Below, one piece after another: positions 4,099-43,800 of a stretch of 64,000 bases of DNA. The notes below the pieces were generated by a model, which saw only the letters and a program-made list of their open reading frames with translations, was not told the DNA's origin and ran no database searches. Source of the stretch: Rotaria socialis (taxonomy: Eukaryota); NCBI GenBank assembly GCA_905331295.1, contig CAJNYD010000360.1:62001-126000 (forward strand), read 5' to 3'. The first letter of the stretch is position 1, and every line of letters starts with the position of its first letter. The translations under genes and the position numbers were made by a program.

Positions 4099-5655
4099 GG
4101 GTAAATAGACTTTTGATCCCCAAAAAAATGACTATTGATCACCAAAATGTGTTAGTTGCGAAATGATCACCAAAAAATATATATTTGATCACCAATTTGC
4201 TTTTTGTGGAATGAATGGTAGAGTTGTGGTAGATAACGTGTTTATCTCAAAAGACAACAGATTGATAAGACATAGTTAAACAATAATCATAATTGGATCA
4301 AAATGATCTCATTAACTGAGAATAGTTACACAAAATGTTCTATCACAACAATGCAGAAAACTAAAAATGTCAAGTAAGCAGTGGACGCTGCTATACACAG
4401 CTCAATCATATGAAGAAGCAAAAGATTTAGCAAAATCACGCTTTAATGTTTGCCAAAATCGACGATCAGATTTAAACGATCAAACAAAATATTCATTTAA
4501 ATGCAGTGANNNNNNNNNNNNNNNNNNNNNNNNNNNNNNNNNNNNNNNNNNNNNNNNNNNNNNNNNNNNNNNNNNNNNNNNNNNNNNNNNNNNNNNNNNN
4601 NNNNNNNNNNNNNNNNNNNNNNNNNNNNNNNNNNNNNNNNNNNNNNNNNNNNNNNNNNNNNNNNNNNNNNNNNNNNNNNNNNNNNNNNNNNNNNNNNNNN
4701 NNNNNNNNNNNNNNNNNNNNNNNNNNNNNNNNNNNNNNNNNNNNNNNNNNNNNNNNNNNNNNNNNNNNNNNNNNNNNNNNNNNNNNNNNNNNNNNNNNNN
4801 NNNNNNNNNNNNNNNNNNNNNNNNNNNNNNNNNNNNNNNNNNNNNNNNNNNNNNNNNNNNNNNNNNNNNNNNNNNNNNNNNNNNNNNNNNNNNNNNNNNN
4901 NNNNNNNNNNNNNNNNNNNNNNNNNNNNNNNNNNNNNNNNNNNNNNNNNNNNNNNNNNNNNNNNNNNNNNNNNNNNNNNNNNNNNNNNNNNNNNNNNNNN
5001 NNNNNNNNNNNNNNNNNNNNNNNNNNNNNNNNNNNNNNNNNNNNNNNNNNNNNNNNNTTGTGATAATCCACATTTGACATAGGTAGATATGGATTCACGT
5101 ATTGGCGATGGTAATCTTGTTGTTGCATTTCGTTCATTTTGTTCATGTTCATGTTCATTTTTGGACATAATTGTTATAGAATTCATATTGTTATCTGGCA
5201 CGATAATTTTTATTTGAAAATGACATAAAGGATATTCCTGTATTCACTGCATTTAAATGAATATTTTGGTTGATCGTTTAAATCTGATCGTCGATTTTGG
5301 CAAACATTAAAATGTGATTTTGCTAAATCTTTTGCTTCTTCATATGATTGAGCTGTGTATAGCAGCGTCCACTGTTTACTTGAGATTTTTAGTTTTCTGC
5401 ATTGTTATGATAGAACATTTTGTGTAACTATTCTCAGTTAATGAGATCATTTTGATCCAATTATGATTATTGTTTAACTATGTCTTATCAATCTGTTGTC
5501 TTTTGAGATAAACACGTTATCTACCACAACTCTACCATTCATTCCACAAAAAGCAAATTGGTGATCAAATATATATTTTTTTGGTGATCATTTCGCAACT
5601 AACACATTTTGGTGATCAACAGTCATTTTTTTGGGGATCAAAAGTCTATTTACCC
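4099..5655. mobile_element. Fold-back Mutator-like (MULE) element: two inverted copies of a transposon 5' end around an assembly gap
   Basis: Termini GGGTAAATAGACTTTTGATCCCC (4099) and GGGGATCAAAAGTCTATTTACCC (ending 5655); 4099-4509 is the reverse complement of ~5244-5655. The arms encode MSSKQWTLLY...KCSEYR(fs)YPLCHFQIKII...NEHEH, a C-x7-C...HxH WRKY/FAR1-type zinc finger typical of MULE transposase N-termini. N-gap at 4510-5057. Confidence 0.75.
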
Positions 5656-25810: not shown

Positions 25811-28205
25811 TTACGTTGTTGTTGTTTTATTTTTATGCATCTGTTCGTTAATTTGCTTCGCTAGATTATTAAATTTTGAGCATAAAATCGTTTCGCTTTG
25901 CTGTATAATAGGACGACCTTGGTCACATGCTTGCCGAAATTGCGTATCAATAGGCAATGATTCAAGAATATTTAAATGAAATTCATTGGATAATAATTGA
26001 GCACCATTTTCACCAAAAATTTTTTCTTCGTGCCCACATTTTTGACAAAAATACGTTGAAAAATTTTCTACAATACCAAGTATTGGTACATTAACAAGAC
26101 GAAACATTTCGATTGCTTTTCTTACATCAATTAATGCAAGTTCTTGTGGCGTTGTTACCATAATGACACCAGATAATGGAACTAATTGAGCAATAGATAA
26201 TTGTATATCACCCGTACCTGGAGGTAAATCAATAATTAAATAATCTAGTGGAGACCAAGCAACTTGTCGAAGAAGTTTTTCAATAGCTTGCATCACCATA
26301 AGACCACGCCATACAATAGCACCATCAGATTTAGTTAAGAATGCTATAGACATACATTTCAAATTGAAATTTATCAATGGTTCTATAAGATTTGTTGTTG
26401 TTGTTGTTGTTGCTTTATGATTACGTAGATTGAGTAGTGTTGGTAGAGACGGACCAAAAATATCAGCATCCAAAATTCCAACTTGATTGTTCAAACGAGA
26501 TAATGCAAGTGCTAAATTGACACTTACAGATGATTTACCAACGCCACCTGAAAGAAAAAAAAATCAAGAATACACCTTAGAGAGACGTCAATCAAAGAAT
26601 AGTTAGTGTCAATAGAAATACTCTAGAGTAAGTGGCTAACATTTCGTTAGCTATAACTTTGAGAAAACGCCGCTTTCAAAATGTATCTATTTTGAAGCAA
26701 CGTGATTGCTACATGCTTCATTGGTTATTTATTTCATTACGTAATTCATACACTGAGTCAGTGTTTACCTAAGTTCGATTGCATTACTGTATGTTTGTCG
26801 TTATCTAAATTTTCTTTTCATAACTTTATGATTACATACGTCGTTTGTTACTCTTTTTTGTAAGAATAGATTCGCTACTGTAATTTGTTTTTATTTTTCG
26901 ATTGGAATATTTTCTTAAAAGTTTTCAAAAGCTACCGTCAATATTTAATCCGTCTTATTTTTATATTTTATTGCTGATGGATAATATTTGATGGTTCAAA
27001 TAGAAAATTTATCATAAGATAATATTCAAAATCGATTCATATTGTTAAACTGATTGTTTTACCAATTGTTGAAACATTTTTTAATCATCAGCTGTTCATC
27101 TCAAGTAGTTCTTGTTCGAAAACTATATATTTAACCTAATCGTTGATCATCTAAAATCTTGTTTTTTTCCAAGTTAGATGATTAGTTTTATCATCATTTA
27201 ATAATACTTAGGGCAAATATGTGCTGGTAGCATGAATGCTCGTGAGTATCTTTTGAATAACGTTTAATAACAACAAGATACAGAACTCCAATTTTGCATT
27301 ATTGGAAAGATGAGATGAAGGCGCATCGAACTCTAGATCACTGATTTTTCTAACCTGTTTTTGGTAAGGTTTTCAGTTGACCTTTTCAAGAAGAAACCTA
27401 TCTCGTGAGTTGTTTACAGTGAATTTTCAATAATCAGGGTCACATTCAAACCACTAATCGAAGATCTACAAACTGCGAAACACTCAGGTGTTAAATTTAA
27501 TTATTTGGGGATAATACGTATTCTAGACGAACCTCTATTGCGATTTTTTATCAACTTTTTTGTTTTTGCTTTTTTTATGAAAAAAGCATTTTTCCGAAGG
27601 TTAGAAAGTTGAGTAAAAACAGTTAAAAAATCCTATACGAAAAATCAGTGATCTACAGTTCGATGCGCCTTCATCTCATCTTTCCAATAGTACAAAATTG
27701 GAGTTCTGTATCTTGTTGTTATTAAACATTAGCCAAAAGGTACTCGCGAGCATTCATGCTACCAGCACATATGCGAAAGAAACAGATCTTATCGAAATTT
27801 TACTATTATGACATTAGCTGAATAGTGATTGAATCGCATAGAAAAAATAGAGTGAAACACGCTCGATCTATTGGTAAAAAAAAGAAACCTTTTTCGACCT
27901 CTGCTTGAGGAAATAAGGTACCCCACTCACTACTTTTGGATTGCCCTAAGTTTCTGACTAATGTTTGAGGAATGATTTTTATAATTAATAAATATAAACA
28001 TTCATTCATATAAAATTACCTCATTGGATAAATCAAATAAATTGCATATACCTTTGCCTGAGCCAACTGCAATAATATGTCGAACACCTTCAATTGGTGC
28101 TCGTTTTGGTAAACCACGTGCCATCATAGCTTGTTGGTGTGGTGTTGACGTTGTTGAATGGCAACGTCGAAAAAGATGTAGAAAAGTATTCAATCGAATA
28201 GTCAT
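25811..28205 (-). CDS. NUBPL: Mitochondrial iron-sulfur protein NUBPL/Ind1 (Mrp/NBP35 P-loop ATPase)
   Basis: Exons 28052-28205 and 25811-26547. GSGKGGVGKS deviant Walker A, DADIFGPS, IVWRGLMVMQAIEKLLRQV, DLPPGTGD, ENFSTYFCQKC; Arg-rich transit-peptide-like N-terminus. Confidence 0.95.
27211..27946. mobile_element. MITE-like element in the NUBPL intron with ~134-bp internal inverted repeats
   Basis: 27217-27350 is the near-identical reverse complement of 27639-27772. Short termini GGGCAA...TTGCCC are flanked by TA on both sides. No coding capacity seen. Confidence 0.7.
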
Positions 28206-34234: not shown

Positions 34235-37018
34235 CTAGACGTCTTCATTTTCATTAACTCTATTAACTAGTAGTACTTTTGAGTTCAAGACTTCACGTTG
34301 ACTTCGTCGCCACTATAAAAATAGAAAATATAAATACAACAGTCAAACACTATCACCAAGAAAATAAAATCATACTTGAAAAAATATATACAAGGAAGTT
34401 AACGTAACAAGTAAAAGACTAAGCGATGGTAAAATAAATTTTATATAAGACGCAACATCCAATGATACTAATATTATTGATAATAAACGATGAATTTTTG
34501 GTGTCAGCCTGGCTTCATCATCAAACCATACAATTGGCATTATAATTGGCTTGACTGATTTTAATAAACTACACAAACGAATCTTTCAAAATGATCTTTC
34601 AAACAAAAATTTAAAACAAAACATCTACGAACTGAAGTTTTTTTATATTTGGCATATAAAAACTCAATTGTAATCGAACATTAACATCAAAGGGAACACT
34701 AGTTACCTGTAGAAAATCAAAAACAGATAAAAAGTGGTTTCAAATACAAATCATTTTAGGTCTAAATACCGGATCAAAACTCATGATGAATGCATGTTTA
34801 TTTTTATTTGGTTGCATGCCATGAACATCTTGTCGGAATTTTTCATCTGCTTGAAAAAAATGAGGTGAAGAAATGAAACCCCATACTCCTATGATGAAAA
34901 AAAAGAAAAGTTATTTTTCAATAGCCAAGTATTTTCCTTTACCTAAGTAGCAAGTACTAATATTCAATACACCATCGCCTAAACAAGGGCCATGACCACA
35001 AAAACCACGATTTTCTTCTCGAGACATGTTAAATACATCGGCAGACAAATGGTAATCGTATAAGGTAACATAACCATCTTTTCTTTCTCGTAAAAATGAT
35101 AAATAATATGAGCTAATCAAAAAGTATTCGTTTTTAATTTTTTCGACAAGAAGATTTTCCGACGTAACTCACCGACACATATCAGCACTATATGAATAAA
35201 CCTTTTTATCCTTTTTTAAATTTGGTGGAAATAAAGATCCATCTGAAGTTAATTGTTATTTTTTCACAAGAAGAAAGACATGAAATTTTTAATACACAAA
35301 AATATTTACCTGTTCCATTCAGCATATTTGCTTGAGGTGTAGACCAATAATTTAACGTACTAAATATTACAAAAACAAAACACATTCAGATTTAGTTATT
35401 TGCAGGTTTTAAACAAATTTTACCTAACACCATTGAATGTAATAATTTTTGCTACTTGAGTTATATCATTAATTCCAGTCTGAATAGTAAAATTTTGATA
35501 ATAGGAAGTATTTCTCTAAATAAATGATTGATAAACTTTAATAATACTGAAAAAAATATATGAATTTAAATTACAGCTTGTAATATTCCAAATTTATCGT
35601 CTTTTAATACACCAGGTTTCACTTTACTAGCTGTTTCAATTAATGGATCTGTATAACCTAATCAATTGAAATAAAAATTCAATTTTTGGAGAAAAAGATT
35701 AACGAGTTTTTTTTCATTAAATTTTACCTTCCATTAATTGTTTTACGGTAACATTAACAAATAGTTGTGTTTCTAGTAGTTCAATAAAAAAATTAATACC
35801 TTCTTGCATCTCTTTACTATAAAATTGCACTTCATAAGCCATAGCCTGTTAAAAAGTAGAACTATCTAACAATTGTAAACTACGGGAGACTTTACCATTA
35901 ATGGTACATTGATAACAGAGACATATTCATCATCGGGACCAATTGATTGATTTCGATCAAAATAAAGTGTCGTACTTGGAATGTAAGAAAGTCTGTCGAA
36001 ACCATCACTATAAGTAATACTTGATCGATTCCATTCTTCTCTAAAAGAATACTTTTATTTGAGTATTTTTTATTAGTAAATTAATATATGTATATATGCT
36101 ATACCGATAAACATAAGGTCCACGTTCAACTAACTCTGGTATGGCACCATTTTGTACTGCAATAGGGTTGGTACAATGCCATATATACATTTTTCGATGT
36201 ATAGTAGCTGGTGGATTTTGCCAAAATCTACGGCCTTCTCGATTTTGAACAATAGCCATTTTCTAGAAAATATGTCCTGTTTTTTATTCATTGGCGGAAA
36301 AAAGACGATAGAACGAACGTGTGCAAGTATATTATTCACTAATGGATCAAGTAGGACCAGTAAAATAATTCCCAAAATTAAACCCAGAAAACTAAGTATA
36401 AAACAAACTGAACATTTGTAATTTGTTCGGAACGGCTTGAATGGCGACATTTCAGATAGCGTGTCTGGTAAACCGTTGTGTGCTAGAATATAAACGAAAG
36501 TAAAAGTTTCTTATCTTATGGGACTATTCGTGTGACGCAATAGATACAGCTCTCTTGTCCTTGTATATGATAGATTGTGCTTGTCGAAATCGTACTTGCG
36601 TAAATCCTTTATCATCGATTTCAAATGATTATATGAAAAGACAAAATAACATTAGCGATAATACGAATGAAAGGAGAATCCTAATAGTGATCGAACATGA
36701 AAATGCATTCAGTTGAAATACCCACGAATGACTCAGTAACAACATAACTATTATATAACTGTCACATGTCAGAATACTGTAAGATGTTAATTATAGAGAC
36801 AAAAAATCACGATAGAACGAAAGCAAAGAAGTACTGTATTCGCAATTATATTAAAAAACAAAAAAATGAATTCGCTTACATTTCTGACCATCATCATCTT
36901 CATGGAATTGTAAACTTGTAATTCCACCTTTTTCTTTGAAAATATCATGTGATGGATATACGCTTTCAATAAGTCTTCTTTTACTTTCCGTTCTTTCGTT
37001 ATCGCCAACATCGGTCAT
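34235..37018 (-). CDS. CD36/scavenger receptor class B family protein (SCARB/SNMP/LIMP-2-like)
   Basis: Multi-exon; the first exon 36880-37018 splices in frame to 36483. N-terminal TM, WQNPPATIHRKMYIWHCTNP, ELVERGPYVYREEW, CRSERKDG, GVLNISTC, ISSPHFFQAD, IMPIVWFDD, C-terminal TM; TAG at 34235. Confidence 0.93.
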
Positions 37019-37870
37019 ATTGATAATAGATAAGAAGAGTGGTGTTTGTTTTTTTAAATAAAATAAAAAATTATATCAAGAATCAATTTGTTGTTTTTCA
37101 ACAAAGTAGATGTGTATCAATTAGATCTACAAAATATGAATCATAGAAAATGAATGAATTGCAAGATTCTTTTTTTGTTCTTCGTTTCTTTTTTTTCGTT
37201 CTATACCAAGTACTTTGGAGAAACTTAAAAAAACATCGCCTTTATGTTTTAAGGTTATGTAAAATACTGCTTATATAATCATCAAAATATGCTTACAACA
37301 GAAATAATATGCTTCTTGAGTAATGCGATAATATGCTGACTATGGAGTTATGTAATGAAAATAGTTATATTGAATATTTTGTCTGCCTAAATATACAATG
37401 AAATCCTACATATTTTATTTCTATTAAAAACATAGAAATAAGTAAGAAAACACTGGACAATATCTCATATTTATGTTCGTCAGTTTAAAAGAAGATTAGA
37501 AGAAGCGACGTGTCAGAGGAGCATACGCTTCGATCACGATACTGAAAGAAACTAGCACGAAGGTTGGGATGCAAAAGTAGAGGAATATAAACGGTGAAAT
37601 TCAACCAAGAAAAAAGAACTATCAGTTTACTACTGTGACATAACGGATTATTTAGTATTATCAGTCATACATTTGTTTTCTATAAAAACACATTTGATAC
37701 TTATTCGAATGATTTACTGTCAGGTATAGTGTTGTAACTGTATAATTAATGAACATGAAATACTGAATTATCTTTTGTTCTTTAGATTGAAATATCATTT
37801 ATCATCTAACATGAATTTATCGATGTCATTGACAGATTGATTTTGATCAAACTATTTAAAAAAATTAAAA

Positions 37871-38778
37871 AAACAAAGTGAAGATACCTTTTCACTTTTT
37901 GAAGCACACATAACACTCGGATTTAAATCCGAGGTTTTCGCATTTATTCTATAAGACATATATCTCATCAAGATACATCCATTGTCACTAAATTGCAAGG
38001 AGATAATACAGGCGTGCTAAGTTAGAATGAACCACACTGTATGCGACCCTATCCGGTGACCACTGACTCTACTCTCAGAGTGATATAATATCATTAGAAA
38101 TTACAGAAATTGAGTTCAGATTCGCGTCTAGGTTGGAAGACCGGGTATGACGAGTTACTTTTGAATGGATTTGCGTTTGTATCTAGCGGGATTACGATCG
38201 TAAGCAACCTCATGAATCTATAAGAGATATATGATAGATACACCCATCAGTATTTTCCTAATAAATCACCAATATTAATAGCTGTCGAGTTCGGGTTTTT
38301 ACTTTTCGATAACCTTTTTGCCTAGCTACAAAATCAGGCATTTGGAAAACCCCAAAACTACTGGTCATCAGAGACATATCTAGACAATTTGGTTTCTGGA
38401 CGCAGTTTTTATGCATTTTGAGATCTCTTTCAGGCAGTGTTTCGTTAGAAAGCTACGATTTGATTCAAAATTAATATCAGATTCAAAATCAGTATTAAAA
38501 ACTGAGTCGATTTATATATGTTGTGAATAATTCTGAGAAAAAATCCCTGTACCTCCCCCCCCTCAGGGATGTCTGGCCAATAATGACAATTTTTTCGATA
38601 ACTCAGCGATTTCTTCACGGATCCTTCTCATCTTCGATGTCGACTGAGATATTGATGAGATCATTCTGCGTACAAAATTTCATGCCAATTGAATGAGGTT
38701 TTCAAAAGTTATCGTGTTAACGGACTGACGGACACGCTGACCGAATCTAGAGTGTACTCACTATTTGAGTACACAAAA
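37871..38778 (+). mobile_element. Probable non-autonomous Helitron/Helentron-type (HINE/DINE-1-like) repeat
   Basis: 18-bp perfect palindrome CTCGGATTTAAATCCGAG at 37916-37933; short GACG/GACA-type tract (cggactgacggacacgctgac) at ~38721-38741; terminal stem-loop GTGTACTCA-ctatt-TGAGTACAC at 38752-38774 followed by an A-run. 5' boundary uncertain. Confidence 0.45.
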
Positions 38779-38999
38779 GACAAATAGATACCGAGCCTGT
38801 TCAACATTTGAAAAAAACTAAAATTCATCATCTATAAGAACTTGATGAGCGCTATTTGCGTGTTCTATAACGAGCATGAAAGCATGTGAGAAGTTTTTCC
38901 CTCATTCACTGCAACTCTAAGTATGGTTGATTATTCGCCCAACTTAAGCACAATAAACTAAGAAAGATTTCTAATTGTTTTTGTCGAAAATGAAGTGTT

Positions 39000-39501
39000 C
39001 ATCATCATCATTCGACTGCAAATAACCTGGGTTTGCAGGCGACAACAATCTTACGCCATTCTTCCCTATTGACAGCAGTCTTCCGGATTTCTTCGATGGT
39101 TGGTGGTGTGTCGTTGTTGATCAGTCTTGCGACGTAATCAGGATAGTTTAAGCGTGGGCGACCTCCGCACGTTGTAGGTGGATATTGTGATGGCCTTGTG
39201 ATGAATTTTTGTATTTTTTGTGTTTTTATTTTTGTTTGTGTTTGTTCGGGTCGTCGATGCTTTCTCAAAGACAGGTGCCTGCCTTATCATAGGCTCGGAT
39301 TTTTGTGAAATCCTCGCATGCATACGACGAGACGAAAGACTGTTGCCCGGAATGGGTTCTTCGATTATTGTTTTCGGAGTCATTGTGAAGGTCATCTCGG
39401 GTGACTAACCCTGAGATGCTTACCAGAGCCCATCTTGGCCGTCGTAAAACGACGTTTCCATCCGACACTGCGAGGAAGTGAAGGGTTGGGTTTTGTCGGA
39501 C
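39000..39501 (-). mobile_element. Internally deleted (bipartite) RTE-clade non-LTR retrotransposon, 502 bp
   Basis: 11-bp TSD AATGAAGTGTT (38989-38999 and 39502-39512) and a 3' (TGA)n tail. The 5' part encodes MTPKT...ITISTYNVR (start of an APE endonuclease) joined at ~39166 to the RTE-type C-terminus GGRPRLNYPDYV...NREEWRKIV...*. Confidence 0.85.
39429..39501 (-). ncRNA. HDV-like (delta) self-cleaving ribozyme at the 5' end of the RTE element
   Basis: Minus strand: P1 GTCCGAC / GTCGGAT (first pair G.U); P2 CCCTTC / GATGGG (one U-U mismatch); P3 ACT / AGT; L3 TCCTCGC; GG after P1' for P1.1; P4 CGTCGT-TTT-ACGACG; J4/2 G-C-CAA with the putative catalytic C at 39438. Confidence 0.8.
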
Positions 39502-40865
39502 AATGAAGTGTTATCAAACAAAATATCTTGAGAAGTATCAATTTTATAGTTAAACCAATCCAAATGTGTTATCTGTCTGTAACTTCAGTAAAAAGTCAAC
39601 GTGACTTTCTAATCAACTCTAAAAAGCTGTTGAGTTATCCACAAATCTAACACCGGTATCATTTTTAGAGAAAATATTTCATTGTGTAGCTATCTATTAT
39701 GCCAATGCAATAAATCAATGAAATAACTACAAGAAAATTATTATTACATAATATAAAATAGATCTAATGTTTTTCATTTGAAAATCAATTAAAGCAGATA
39801 TGGAATAATCAGAAATGGAATTCTCTATATAGAACCAGAGTCAGAGTTTTCTCAAGCGATTAATATTGTAGAGTTCAGTGAACTGTATCAAATGAAACAT
39901 ATTAAGCACAACTCACTCAGTTTAACTATTTAATATCATGAAGTGAACTTGACAATTACAAAGACTATCCTTCTAATAGAGTCACAAGTGAATGTATGGG
40001 TATTTCTTAAGTAATAATGATTAATTTTCTTGCCCGAGGAAATACACACCACTATTTTATTCGGTATGAAATCTCAAGGACAAGAATATTTCAAAGACCT
40101 TATTTGCACACCAGGGGTTTGTGATTATTGTACGGTATACAAGATTTCTATATTCTAAAAACATAGGCTGACTACCTTCCAGGGTTGAAAATTATTGCTC
40201 CAAAAGACAAAATCTGAATAAAACACCCTCCCAATTAAATCTTGAGAATACATACGAACTTTTAGATCCTTCGACTTTTCTAAAGGATATAATTGCAATT
40301 TTACTCTTCAATGGTAGTAGTAGAAAAACATGAAAATCAAAAAATGTTCGTCCTAGTGAAATCTTGTATTAATAATTTAGTTCTATAGAATAGTGTTTTT
40401 GTTGGAATAGATTCACATATCTAATTGTTTTTCGAAAATTACATTCTTCATCTTTTTCTATTCCATCATGTACCTTTCAATAAACATGATATTAATTCTC
40501 AATCTTGCAAATACAATTATTTTTATCTTTTCATTTAATATTCTTCTCATTTCTCTTAAAACATGTGTTTAATTCAATAGCTCAAACGATTGCTGAGGAA
40601 ATACGAAGTTCAACTTGCACGTAGGCTGTTTTTGCTCTCTTGAGTCAAACGTTCAATCAATCTGAATGATCAATTCATAAATAAGATAGTGAATATATAT
40701 ATATATATAAGATAGGAAGTAGAACAAGACTAAGACATGAAAACTATGAACATAGATGACACACACATAAAACTCATACAAGTGAATAGAAGAAAAGGGC
40801 AAAGTTTAGAACGTCGACATAGATGGATTGTAGATCAATGACATTTAGAAGTATTTGTTTCCTAT

Positions 40866-43800
40866 CTATCGACGATAAGATGATGGTGATTGAAAGAGAC
40901 GAAATAAATGTCGCTGTGGTGGTGATGAAACAAATGAATCTAAAAAAGAAAGATATGTTGATTATTTTTCTCATTTATATAATTCTAACTCTTTTCTTAC
41001 TCGGTGGTAATTGATTGAATGATTGAGCATATTGTTGATCAGCAACAGTTGAATCTTGATCGTATGGTGATGCATGTATATTATTTGACATTAAACGTTG
41101 TTTATGTTTTAAACGACGGCTTCCTTTAATCGTGGATGATGGTGAAAACATTGGATAAGTCGTTGGTGTTTCTTGATATGTATTATATCTTTTAGTAACA
41201 AAAGTTATAAATACCAATAAAAATTATTATTTTTTTAATAGTATTTCTTACCTTAAATCATTTGATGGTATACGTGGATAATAATCTTGATAACGATAAT
41301 CACTAGAAATAAATGGATGAGTTGGTATTGTTTCTGATTGAGTATTCTGATTTATTTTATACCTCGTTGGACGTATGAATGATGGACTTTCTACTCGATC
41401 GCACACTTTAGTTTCTTGATTCCAATGTAAACCAGGTGCACATGGTCGAACATGAAGTAAATCACCATCACATTGTAGAAAAGCACGAGAATTAAATGCA
41501 AATGGATAAAATCGTTCTTGATTATTAAATACACCCATACATGGATTTGGTACAGTATCTAAATGTAAAAAAAAGGAAAAATGTGTTTGTTGCTTTTTAA
41601 GTTGCAAAAATGAATTTAATAGACGTACTATGTGTACAAGTTAAACCATAAGATTGTTGTTTGTCACAAATGCAAATATAATCTTGTTTATAATCACTTG
41701 TTACTAATGTGTGACATTGATTACCTTCACCACATGGATTAGATGCACATGATGATACGGGTATTTCACAACGTTCACCTGTCCATAGTCCCTGGCATGT
41801 ACATGTAAATGTTGTTGGACTTGTTGAATGACATTCACCATTATTCATACATGGTTGTTCTTGTTCACAAATTGATTTAATGTTGATTTTTTCACATTTA
41901 TCATCATCTGCATTATAAATAAAACTTGTCGGACAGTTCATTATTTCATATTTATTTTCATTTAAACATGAAATATATTTTGTTGGATCTGTTGGATGTC
42001 GAACATTGACATTTATAGATTTACCAATACAAGGTGAGGCTAAAATTAATTTATTTTAAATTAAAAAAAAACGCACATAAATAGTTCAATGATAGCATAC
42101 CACCGTCGTTTTCTACAGAAAGTAATGTATTTTCATCGTCATCTGAAACGACTTGACGTTTTTTACGACTATTATCTTGCTCATCACTGTCATTATCAGA
42201 TTTTGAGTTATCATTCCTATGAAAAGAGAAATAAAGAAAGATAATTTTACTTTTCAAGGAACAAAACTAATTTACGAACTTGTTATTCGGTGATGCTTTT
42301 GACGTATTGGAATCATCTTCATCTTTATCTTCATCTTCATCTTCATCTTCATCTTCATTGGAACTATAAAGGGTTAAAATAAAATAGAATCAATTAAAAA
42401 TATCATAGAACTTACGAATTTGGTTTTTCATCCTCATCTTCATCATTATCATCGTTATTGTTAGTAGAGCCCTGTTTCTTACTACTTTGACTGATATGAG
42501 TAAGACAAAATTGCAGTAAGAAATGAAATACTTTTCGATTCGATAAAGTTACTTACGATCCTTTTATTTTACCATAAATACCAATAGGTGGAAATTGTCC
42601 AGGAAAGCCACCATACAAGTTTGTAGCCCATGAGGAACCACCAGGAGCACCGTGCAGAGGAGGAAAACCAATATTGCCGCTAAAAAAATAAGATCATCCG
42701 TAGTTTTTGCTAGAATTGTTTTATATCATCTTGTAGAATTAAAATAATTAATATGCACTTTACTAATGAAGCATTTTATTTAGACCATAAACTTACTTAT
42801 AATGTAATCTGTCCATCAATTCTGATGTACTAAAAATTATTTCGGGTCCTTTGGCAGACACTGATTGTCCGCCAGTCGATGATCCATCGGAAGATACTTG
42901 AGGTTGATCGAAAGGTCCAAATGATGAATCACTGAAAATAGGTGGTGGGCCAGGAACTATGAAGAAATGAAATAAAAAATAAGATGAGAAACCATTAAGA
43001 AGATAAGTTACTGAATGTAGCTGGTATTTTCATAGGAAGAGGTGGAAGCAATGGTCCACCAAGTGGTATTGGAAGAGATGGAAGAATGGGAGGTATGAAT
43101 GGTGGTAGCTTTGGTGTTTGAGGTGGTTGCCATATTGGTGGATATATTGACGGATACATTATCTGTTGTGGAAACGTTGGCTGAGGCATTACTGGTGATC
43201 GAACCATTGGATAATTCATTGGTGATGATGGCCACATGTATGGTGAATAATAATTTGGCATGACTGGCGGCGATACAATTGGCTTATTCAGTGGTGGTAA
43301 TCGTGTATAAATTGGTGGAGGCATTGGTGGTGGTAGTGGTGGTGATAAAACTTGTTGAGGTACTGTTTGTTGGAGTGGTGGCGAAAAAATCGATCGTGAC
43401 ATATCGTGCGACAACGTTGGGTACCTATTAAAATTATAGGACAGAAATGTATGCATATGTACATATATTATGTTGTATAGTGTAGGACATACTGTATTGG
43501 GCCGAATGGATAAATCATTGTAGGAGCAGATTGTGGACTAAATTGAGTAAGTATATAGGTATAGATATATTTAAATAAACGAATTATAAATAGCATACGC
43601 AGCTGGTGGTGAGGCATAAGGACCTGCAATTCCGATTGGACCTGAGAAACCTGGTAATGGAGTATAACCTGGAGCCGGTGGGCCTAATTAAAAAAATACA
43701 AGTTGAAGATAAAATCTGATGTGACAAACGAGCACAAAACAAATTACTTACCTAAGGGTACGTTTAATCTCTTGAAATTTGGAAATGGATTATTTTCTTT

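Follow-up and report, generated by a model that had tools for sequence, protein, structure and literature searches.

Ruminski et al. reportedly found, in 2011, HDV-like self-cleaving ribozymes at the 5′ ends of RTE retrotransposons. The drz-Agam-1 ribozyme (Rfam RF01787) is, we take it, one that heads an RTE. Papers that cite the 2011 finding likewise place HDV-like ribozymes at RTE 5′ ends (PMC5786205, PMC6765202, PMC3774820; here and below, published work is cited from excerpts), and one of them states that RTE cleavage occurs at the 5′ junction (Eickbush 2013, PMC3774820). Shortened, two-ended derivatives of such elements are also known. Bov-A, RTESINE, and WALLSI3 are bipartite, ORF-less, non-autonomous RTE elements, and the frequency of two-ended RTE derivatives has been called unexplained (Kojima 2018, PMC5786205). 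Template jump or repair has been proposed as the origin of SIDEs (Eickbush and Eickbush 2012, PMC3414825), and LINE copies in bdelloid rotifers are frequently inactivated by internal deletion (Gladyshev and Arkhipova 2010, PMC2861651). As far as these excerpts go, ribozyme-headed RTEs and two-ended RTE derivatives are both already published. Here, we describe a 502-nt element from the bdelloid Rotaria socialis. We consider it highly probable that the element carries the 5′ end of a young RTE-type LINE, with a ribozyme fold predicted to cut at G 39501, in a copy from which 2,800 nt of ORF are missing, probably removed by one event.

The element is intergenic and runs from 39501 to 39000 on the minus strand of the window, i.e., the whole 64,000-nt stretch that was analyzed, in which GC content is near 30% and genes are compact. 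It is bounded by an 11-bp target-site duplication (TSD; minus strand, 5′ copy at 39502..39512 and 3′ copy at 38989..38999) whose two copies match exactly and whose sequence occurs in the 64-kb window only at these two places, one at each end of the element. G 39501, proposed as the scissile base in a preliminary description, is indeed the innermost neighbor of the TSD. The opposite end is a (TGA)n tail (39000..39010, minus strand), read from the sequence, the first unit of which is the LINE stop codon; the element therefore has no further 3′ UTR. By our reading of the gene layout, the element lies ~1.35 kb beyond the stop of a gene on the same strand, making read-through transcription of the element plausible. 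The one RNA-labelled run of the host species (X24) contained next to none of the words searched for, which is no proof of absence. A very high-copy repeat, with depth up to ~67,000 in run X3, begins ~200 nt beyond the element's 3′ end (38700-38790, on toward ~38070).

Judged by its sequence, the first 73 nt of the element (39429..39501, minus strand) folds as an HDV-like nested double pseudoknot comprising P1, P1.1, P2, P3, and P4. P1 has 7 bp (39501-39495 / 39466-39460) and opens with a G-U pair (G 39501-U 39460). P2 (39485-39480 / 39434-39429) contains one U-U mismatch, P3 has 3 bp (39479-39477 / 39469-39467), L3 is of the HDV type (39476-39470), P1.1 pairs 39475-39474 with 39459-39458, and P4 has 6 bp (39454-39449 / 39445-39440). 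J4/2 starts with the predicted catalytic C (39438), on which the descriptor and the Rfam alignment agree. This is, part for part and position for position, the arrangement that the preliminary description had proposed. Cleavage is predicted 5′ of G 39501, with C 39438 assisting. A 3-bp extension of P2 (39489-39487 / 39425-39423) is possible, as seen by eye from the alignment of relatives and the drz-agam-1 model; if formed, it would leave a J1/2 of 5 nt, the length with which fast cleavage has been reported (excerpt of PMC4908430).

The fold was located with an HDV descriptor built from consensus features with loose tolerances. Applied to both strands of the 64 kb, it returned a single core in the whole window, 39501-39429; its chance matches amounted to one among 500 dinucleotide shuffles of the window and none among 20,000 shuffles of the element. 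Covariance models give a more divided result. The two best Rfam matches in 37000-42000, HDV-F-prausnitzii (RF02682; 36.6 bits, E 3e-4) and drz-agam-1 (RF01787; 26.6 bits, E 0.032), are both HDV-type models and both place the start at 39501, as had been proposed, but their scores fall below the gathering scores of 44 and 37, respectively. Indeed, nothing in the window, the ribozyme included, came up to any Rfam gathering score. The nested-only folding energy is unremarkable (z -0.10), as expected, since the folding program is blind to pseudoknots. An alternative P1 at 39519 is weak, has four G-U pairs, and was ruled out as lying within the flank. Like RTE 5′-end ribozymes and drz-agam-1, the fold is a nested double pseudoknot in which G1 is the first base of the element, and its alignment extends over the whole RF01787 model (1-82 of 82), including the P2 extension. 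It differs from drz-agam-1 in its sub-threshold score, its bdelloid host, and the U-U in P2, and in that cleavage here is predicted.

Relatives of the ribozyme also support the fold. A core pattern that fixed the inner P1 pairs, L3, and P1.1 gave 12 matches in 11 metagenome loci and no matches in viral contigs; the descriptor accepts nine of these 12 at the matched position. Seven of the metagenome matches were aligned with the window's copy (7 distinct rows). The five others were left out: L004 and L013 pass the descriptor but are shorter and more distant, and L006, L007, and L009 have no plausible fold at the match. Among the 7 distinct rows, 9 of 22 pairs vary on both sides (two in P1, four in P2, one in P3, and two in P4), and 94.8% of cells pair, versus 36.5-44.1% with the partners slid. 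The covariation score was reached by none of 500 shuffles, although related sequences can beat such shuffles. Compensatory changes are thus found in each of P1 to P4, the check that had been suggested for this fold. Because the search pattern fixed them, the invariance of inner P1, L3, and P1.1 is uninformative, and because an RTE ORF is missing from all 11 loci, the covariation backs the fold rather than its connection with RTE.

The two closest relatives, L003 and L012, have perfect P2 stems. They are lone ribozymes (L003:918-1002 and L012:863-947), about 80% alike over 99 nt, in AT-rich, rotifer-like DNA without an RTE body. Each lies behind a T-tract, roughly 100-140 nt after an AATAAA, with no clear protein in common; an intronic location was considered, but the sequences better fit intergenic sites after poly(A)-like signals. 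They are possibly domesticated ribozyme heads. In another organism, ribozyme-headed short repeats (L005:659-1096; L010:82-796 and 813-1248) score 32.5-35 bits to drz-agam-1; the L010 repeats are in tandem, and the first ends in a trinucleotide tail. L011 has two copies of a close relative (799-876 and 2329-2406) inside a long inverted repeat. They have sequence upstream of G1 in common, so the ribozyme there is not the 5′ end of an element. The base at -1 is U in the window and in eight of the nine descriptor-passing metagenome matches, often in a T-tract.

The link to a LINE comes instead from sequencing runs, four of which (X3, X8, X9, and X19, out of 24 listed) were compared with the element base by base; what follows holds among the matches listed. 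The window may derive from X3, and X8 belongs to the same study as possible sources, leaving only X9 and X19 as independent. In X9, an independent peat metagenome, a 988-nt contig listed among the matches is identical to 39166-39503 (0 differences), has another upstream flank, and continues into the endonuclease. Since this full-length relative shares the starting G but not the flank, the ribozyme is a feature of the parent LINE. Together with the covarying relatives, it upholds the proposal of an HDV-like fold at the 5′ end of a non-LTR element. Among the matches listed, contigs also begin at 39501 in X3, X8, and X19, although contig starts cannot reveal where an RNA starts. One sister copy, present in X3 and X8, aligns up to 39502.

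The same contigs bear on the U-U in P2, which the preliminary description had suggested might be decay after insertion. Three contigs among the matches listed cover it without a difference (X3 record 8, X8 record 16, and X9 record 26), and the X9 copy is full length, at another site, and from an independent study. The U-U therefore predates the insertion, and the suggestion of decay is abandoned. Such mismatches are not unusual: about a third of R2 ribozymes have mismatches among the first five P2 pairs (Eickbush 2013, excerpt of PMC3774820).

We propose a mechanism modelled on known families (PMC6765202; PMC5786205; both in excerpt). Host read-through RNA would fold the ribozyme and self-cleave before G1, with C 39438 assisting, and the cut would free the element RNA from the upstream host transcript exactly at G 39501. 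The parent's protein would bind the 3′ end and copy the RNA from the TGA tail at a nicked site, i.e., by target-primed reverse transcription. Copying up to the cut end would leave G1 flush against the TSD. The copy described here is unable to encode the enzyme itself, and its renewed mobility would depend on a full-length sibling.

At its present site, the ribozyme may be hindered by its surroundings. The upstream flank is predicted to form, with the element's first 11 nt, a rival hairpin that takes up the 5′ strand of P1. A nested-only model, which ignores the pseudoknot, puts P1 pairing at about 0.78, falling to 0.01 once the 40-nt native leader is added; cleavage of this copy at its own site may thus be slow. 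The ability of the flank to rival P1 follows from sequence common to target and element: the target DNA just past the 3′ TSD (38980-38987) has an exact 8-mer in common with element positions 4-11 (39491-39498), minus strand. The 8-mer occurs five times in the window, counting both strands, and the empty target site has weak inverted symmetry about the TSD. The shared 8-mer may be due to chance or to microhomology at the second-strand step.

It could be argued from the rival hairpin, the U-U in P2, and the sub-threshold Rfam scores that the inherited fold has little or no cleavage activity, and that the family's 5′ end is instead set by a Pol II promoter within the element; another bdelloid LINE, Hebe, has its start at an initiator motif (excerpt of PMC2861651). 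We regard this as very unlikely: the first base of the element is precisely G1 of P1; L3, P1.1, and the catalytic C are intact; the young, near-identical family has the same U-U; and P2 mismatches are common in R2 ribozymes (excerpt of PMC3774820). A bacterial promoter scan, which is inapplicable to Pol II, gave results at chance level. The young family makes it possible to assay both a P2 U-U that occurs naturally and a rival hairpin formed with the flank.

Downstream of the ribozyme, the element consists of two pieces of a LINE ORF, both on the minus strand. The ORF begins 106 nt after G1, and its start, up to the first AP endonuclease motif (39166..39395), matches P0011 of R. socialis and P0024 of Rotaria magnacalcarata at 73 of 73 residues. 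Its end, the last 51 codons and the stop (39008..39163), matches the C-termini of three R. magnacalcarata proteins (P0022, P0028, and P0029) at 51 of 51. Between them, at the deletion junction (39164..39165, minus strand), 2 nt that match neither side of the parent stand in place of 2,800 nt. Several lines of evidence define the junction: (i) protein offsets, which put the missing sequence at 2,800 nt and the parent at 3,300 nt; (ii) the X9 sequence, which continues past 39166; (iii) contigs in X3, which end at 39166 and 39163; and (iv) a 3,041-nt contig in X8 that joins both sides, with 156 + 2,800 + 85 giving exactly 3,041.

Homologues of the parent protein are about 1,000-1,060 aa long, and their only Pfam domains are RVT_1, Exo_endo_phos, and DUF6451, with no RNase H among them. 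No C-terminal Cys motif (zinc knuckle) was found in the last 220 aa of any of the four proteins checked. In the excerpt of Tay et al. 2010 (PMC2887409), an RTE has one APE+RT ORF, no RNase H, and a very short microsatellite 3′ end. The lepidopteran HmRTE-e01 described there resembles the parent, compared by build alone, in having a single APE+RT ORF of ~1,000 aa, no RNase H, a microsatellite 3′ end, and a length of ~3.3 kb. The (TGA)n starting from the stop codon and the 11-bp TSD (about 6-12 bp in the same excerpt) are further RTE traits. The parent is a 3.30-kb, single-ORF APE+RT LINE of RTE-type build, with the clade assigned by architecture; none of the homologues carries a clade name. Protein-based locus searches gave no close relatives; they returned, in turn, two loci at 43% over 30 aa, none, one at 29%, and, in genome contigs, 21 at 24-40%. 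A tRNA-headed SINE was considered and rejected: there are no tRNA genes in the window, and the head derives from the 5′ end of the LINE itself.

The region between the ribozyme and the ORF has features of its own. A hairpin predicted by folding (39393..39418, minus strand; -11.9 kcal/mol) contains the first in-frame ATG (39395), and one double change at 39416/39395, in a sister element of X19, keeps a pair. A 13-codon upstream ORF (39433-39392, minus strand) starts in the 3′ strand of P2, and its stop overlaps the same ATG; it may be a stop-restart device for translation of an uncapped RNA. In most of the LINE homologues, the annotated start is the next Met (39383). Members of the family from different hosts are almost identical: P0011 and P0024 agree at 97.8% over 623 aa, the peat metagenome contig (X9 record 26) at 338 of 338 nt, and a contig from organism D (X19 record 2) differs at one of 166 nt. 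Recent spread or horizontal transfer is a possible explanation.

The preliminary description, in calling the element a miniature retroposon, implied a mobile family. Such a family would comprise 502-nt units, as in SIDEs or bipartite RTEs, that are transcribed, self-cleaved, and copied by the parent's protein. The ribozyme, the 3′ end, the tail, and a clean TSD are all kept, there are precedents for RTE (PMC5786205) and R2 (PMC3414825; both in excerpt), and shorter two-ended sister elements are present in X19 and X8. Nonetheless, we consider a mobile family unlikely. The window contains a single copy, and the 39166/39163 junction was not seen a second time, either there or among the matches listed in the runs. 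A protein spanning the junction is absent from a collection of 15 billion proteins. The retained ORF pieces are without changes from the parent. In X3, the depth of the 5′ half is 54.3 versus 34.5-38.4 for the flanks, a figure that necessarily includes the parent and leaves little room for extra copies, although depth is a weak guide and gives no copy number. Finally, in X8, the 3,041-nt contig of the parent crosses each of the two junction points without a break, while both flanks are still joined to the element's ends. The miniature family therefore gives way to a 3.30-kb RTE-type LINE minus 2,800 nt, a short form that may be the product of a single-event deletion.

The flanks in X8 have depths of 4.8 and 11.4, and their pattern reflects either a full-length copy at the site in that animal or a junction pruned at low depth. 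If a full-length copy is present there, the deletion came after insertion. We give about an even chance to end-joining repair of a resident full-length copy at the site, which would be the most likely route; failing that, a template jump during insertion is a substantial though lesser possibility.

The short form could also be an assembly artefact in which the two ends of a collapsed repeat were joined, given that the window is draft sequence with 549 N and that X8 has no cover at 39164-39165. This is extremely improbable: there is no N inside the element, the X3 contigs break exactly at 39166 and 39163, as expected of a real junction, and seven runs, all of them possibly sources, contain 0.97-0.98 of the stretch's words.

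Like Bov-A, RTESINE, and WALLSI3, the element joins the 5′ and 3′ ends of an RTE-type LINE by internal deletion and keeps the extreme 5′ end; unlike these amplified families, it has a junction that was seen at one locus and keeps 230 nt and 153 nt of unchanged ORF (excerpt of PMC5786205). The SIDEs of Drosophila R2 share the ribozyme head and 3′ end, but they are old, diverged, rDNA-specific lineages of the R2 clade, whereas the element is intergenic, descends from a parent of the APE type, and has not diverged from it (excerpt of PMC3414825). Internally deleted Hebe copies in Adineta vaga are similar in being bdelloid LINEs with an intact 5′ end, a TSD (7-12 bp for Hebe), and an internal deletion. 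However, Hebe belongs to the Jockey clade and has an initiator motif, with no ribozyme mentioned in the excerpt, and its deletions are of 12-200 bp with 5-14 bp of microhomology, compared with 2,800 nt and a 2-nt insertion here (PMC2861651). Should sibling animals carry a full-length allele at the site, the locus would be a clear-cut example of deletion as a way for a bdelloid to disable a LINE.

The matches listed also reveal, in two coded organisms, a diverged sister family, about 200 nt long, that combines this ribozyme head with the final 45-50 nt of the LINE (X19 record 1; X8 loose ends at 39349 and 39389; X3 record 9; X8 record 17). This may be the true SINE-like family.

Folding compared with recoded controls predicts a 12-bp stem between the two ends of the element, with its 5′ strand at 39336..39347 and its 3′ strand at 39041..39052 (minus strand; 39347-39336 / 39052-39041). 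Three of the 12 pairs are G-U. In control sets of 2,000 each, a helix as long arises 29 times among synonymous recodings, 29 times among codon shuffles, and 32 times among base shuffles (p about 0.015); in sets of 60, at least as good a duplex energy is reached by five recodings and one codon shuffle. Statistical support for this predicted stem is modest. Among the matches listed, the sister element in X19 is joined at the stem, with the head extending to 39338, followed by about the last 48 nt (about 213 nt in total), and that in X8 is also joined there, with the head extending to 39349; the window's own junction (39166/39163) lies away from the stem. Selection for minimal ends would also cluster the sister junctions near the stem. 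It is conceivable, though doubtful, that bdelloid RTE RNAs pair their ends through this 12-bp stem in the coding sequence, which would bring the cut 5′ end near the priming 3′ end, set the point at which the polymerase jumps, and spawn the roughly 200-nt, ribozyme-headed, SINE-like family common to Rotaria-like species, with the lone heads of L003 and L012 being domesticated RNA cutters. If true, the stem would provide a reason for the frequent two-ended derivatives of RTE.

Our literature searches found no report of an RTE ribozyme from a rotifer or bdelloid, although supplements or Repbase may already list one. Nowell 2021 (PMC7943196) names RTE in A. vaga, and the whole word "ribozyme" occurs 0 times in the excerpt. 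The element extends the ribozyme-headed RTE design to bdelloid rotifers, a step of modest importance. Elsewhere in the window are two long inverted repeat pairs that are likely the ends of DNA transposons: one of 412 bp at 98% (4099-4509 / 5244-5655), around an N gap and a short ORF, and one of 134 bp at 94% (27217-27350 / 27639-27772).
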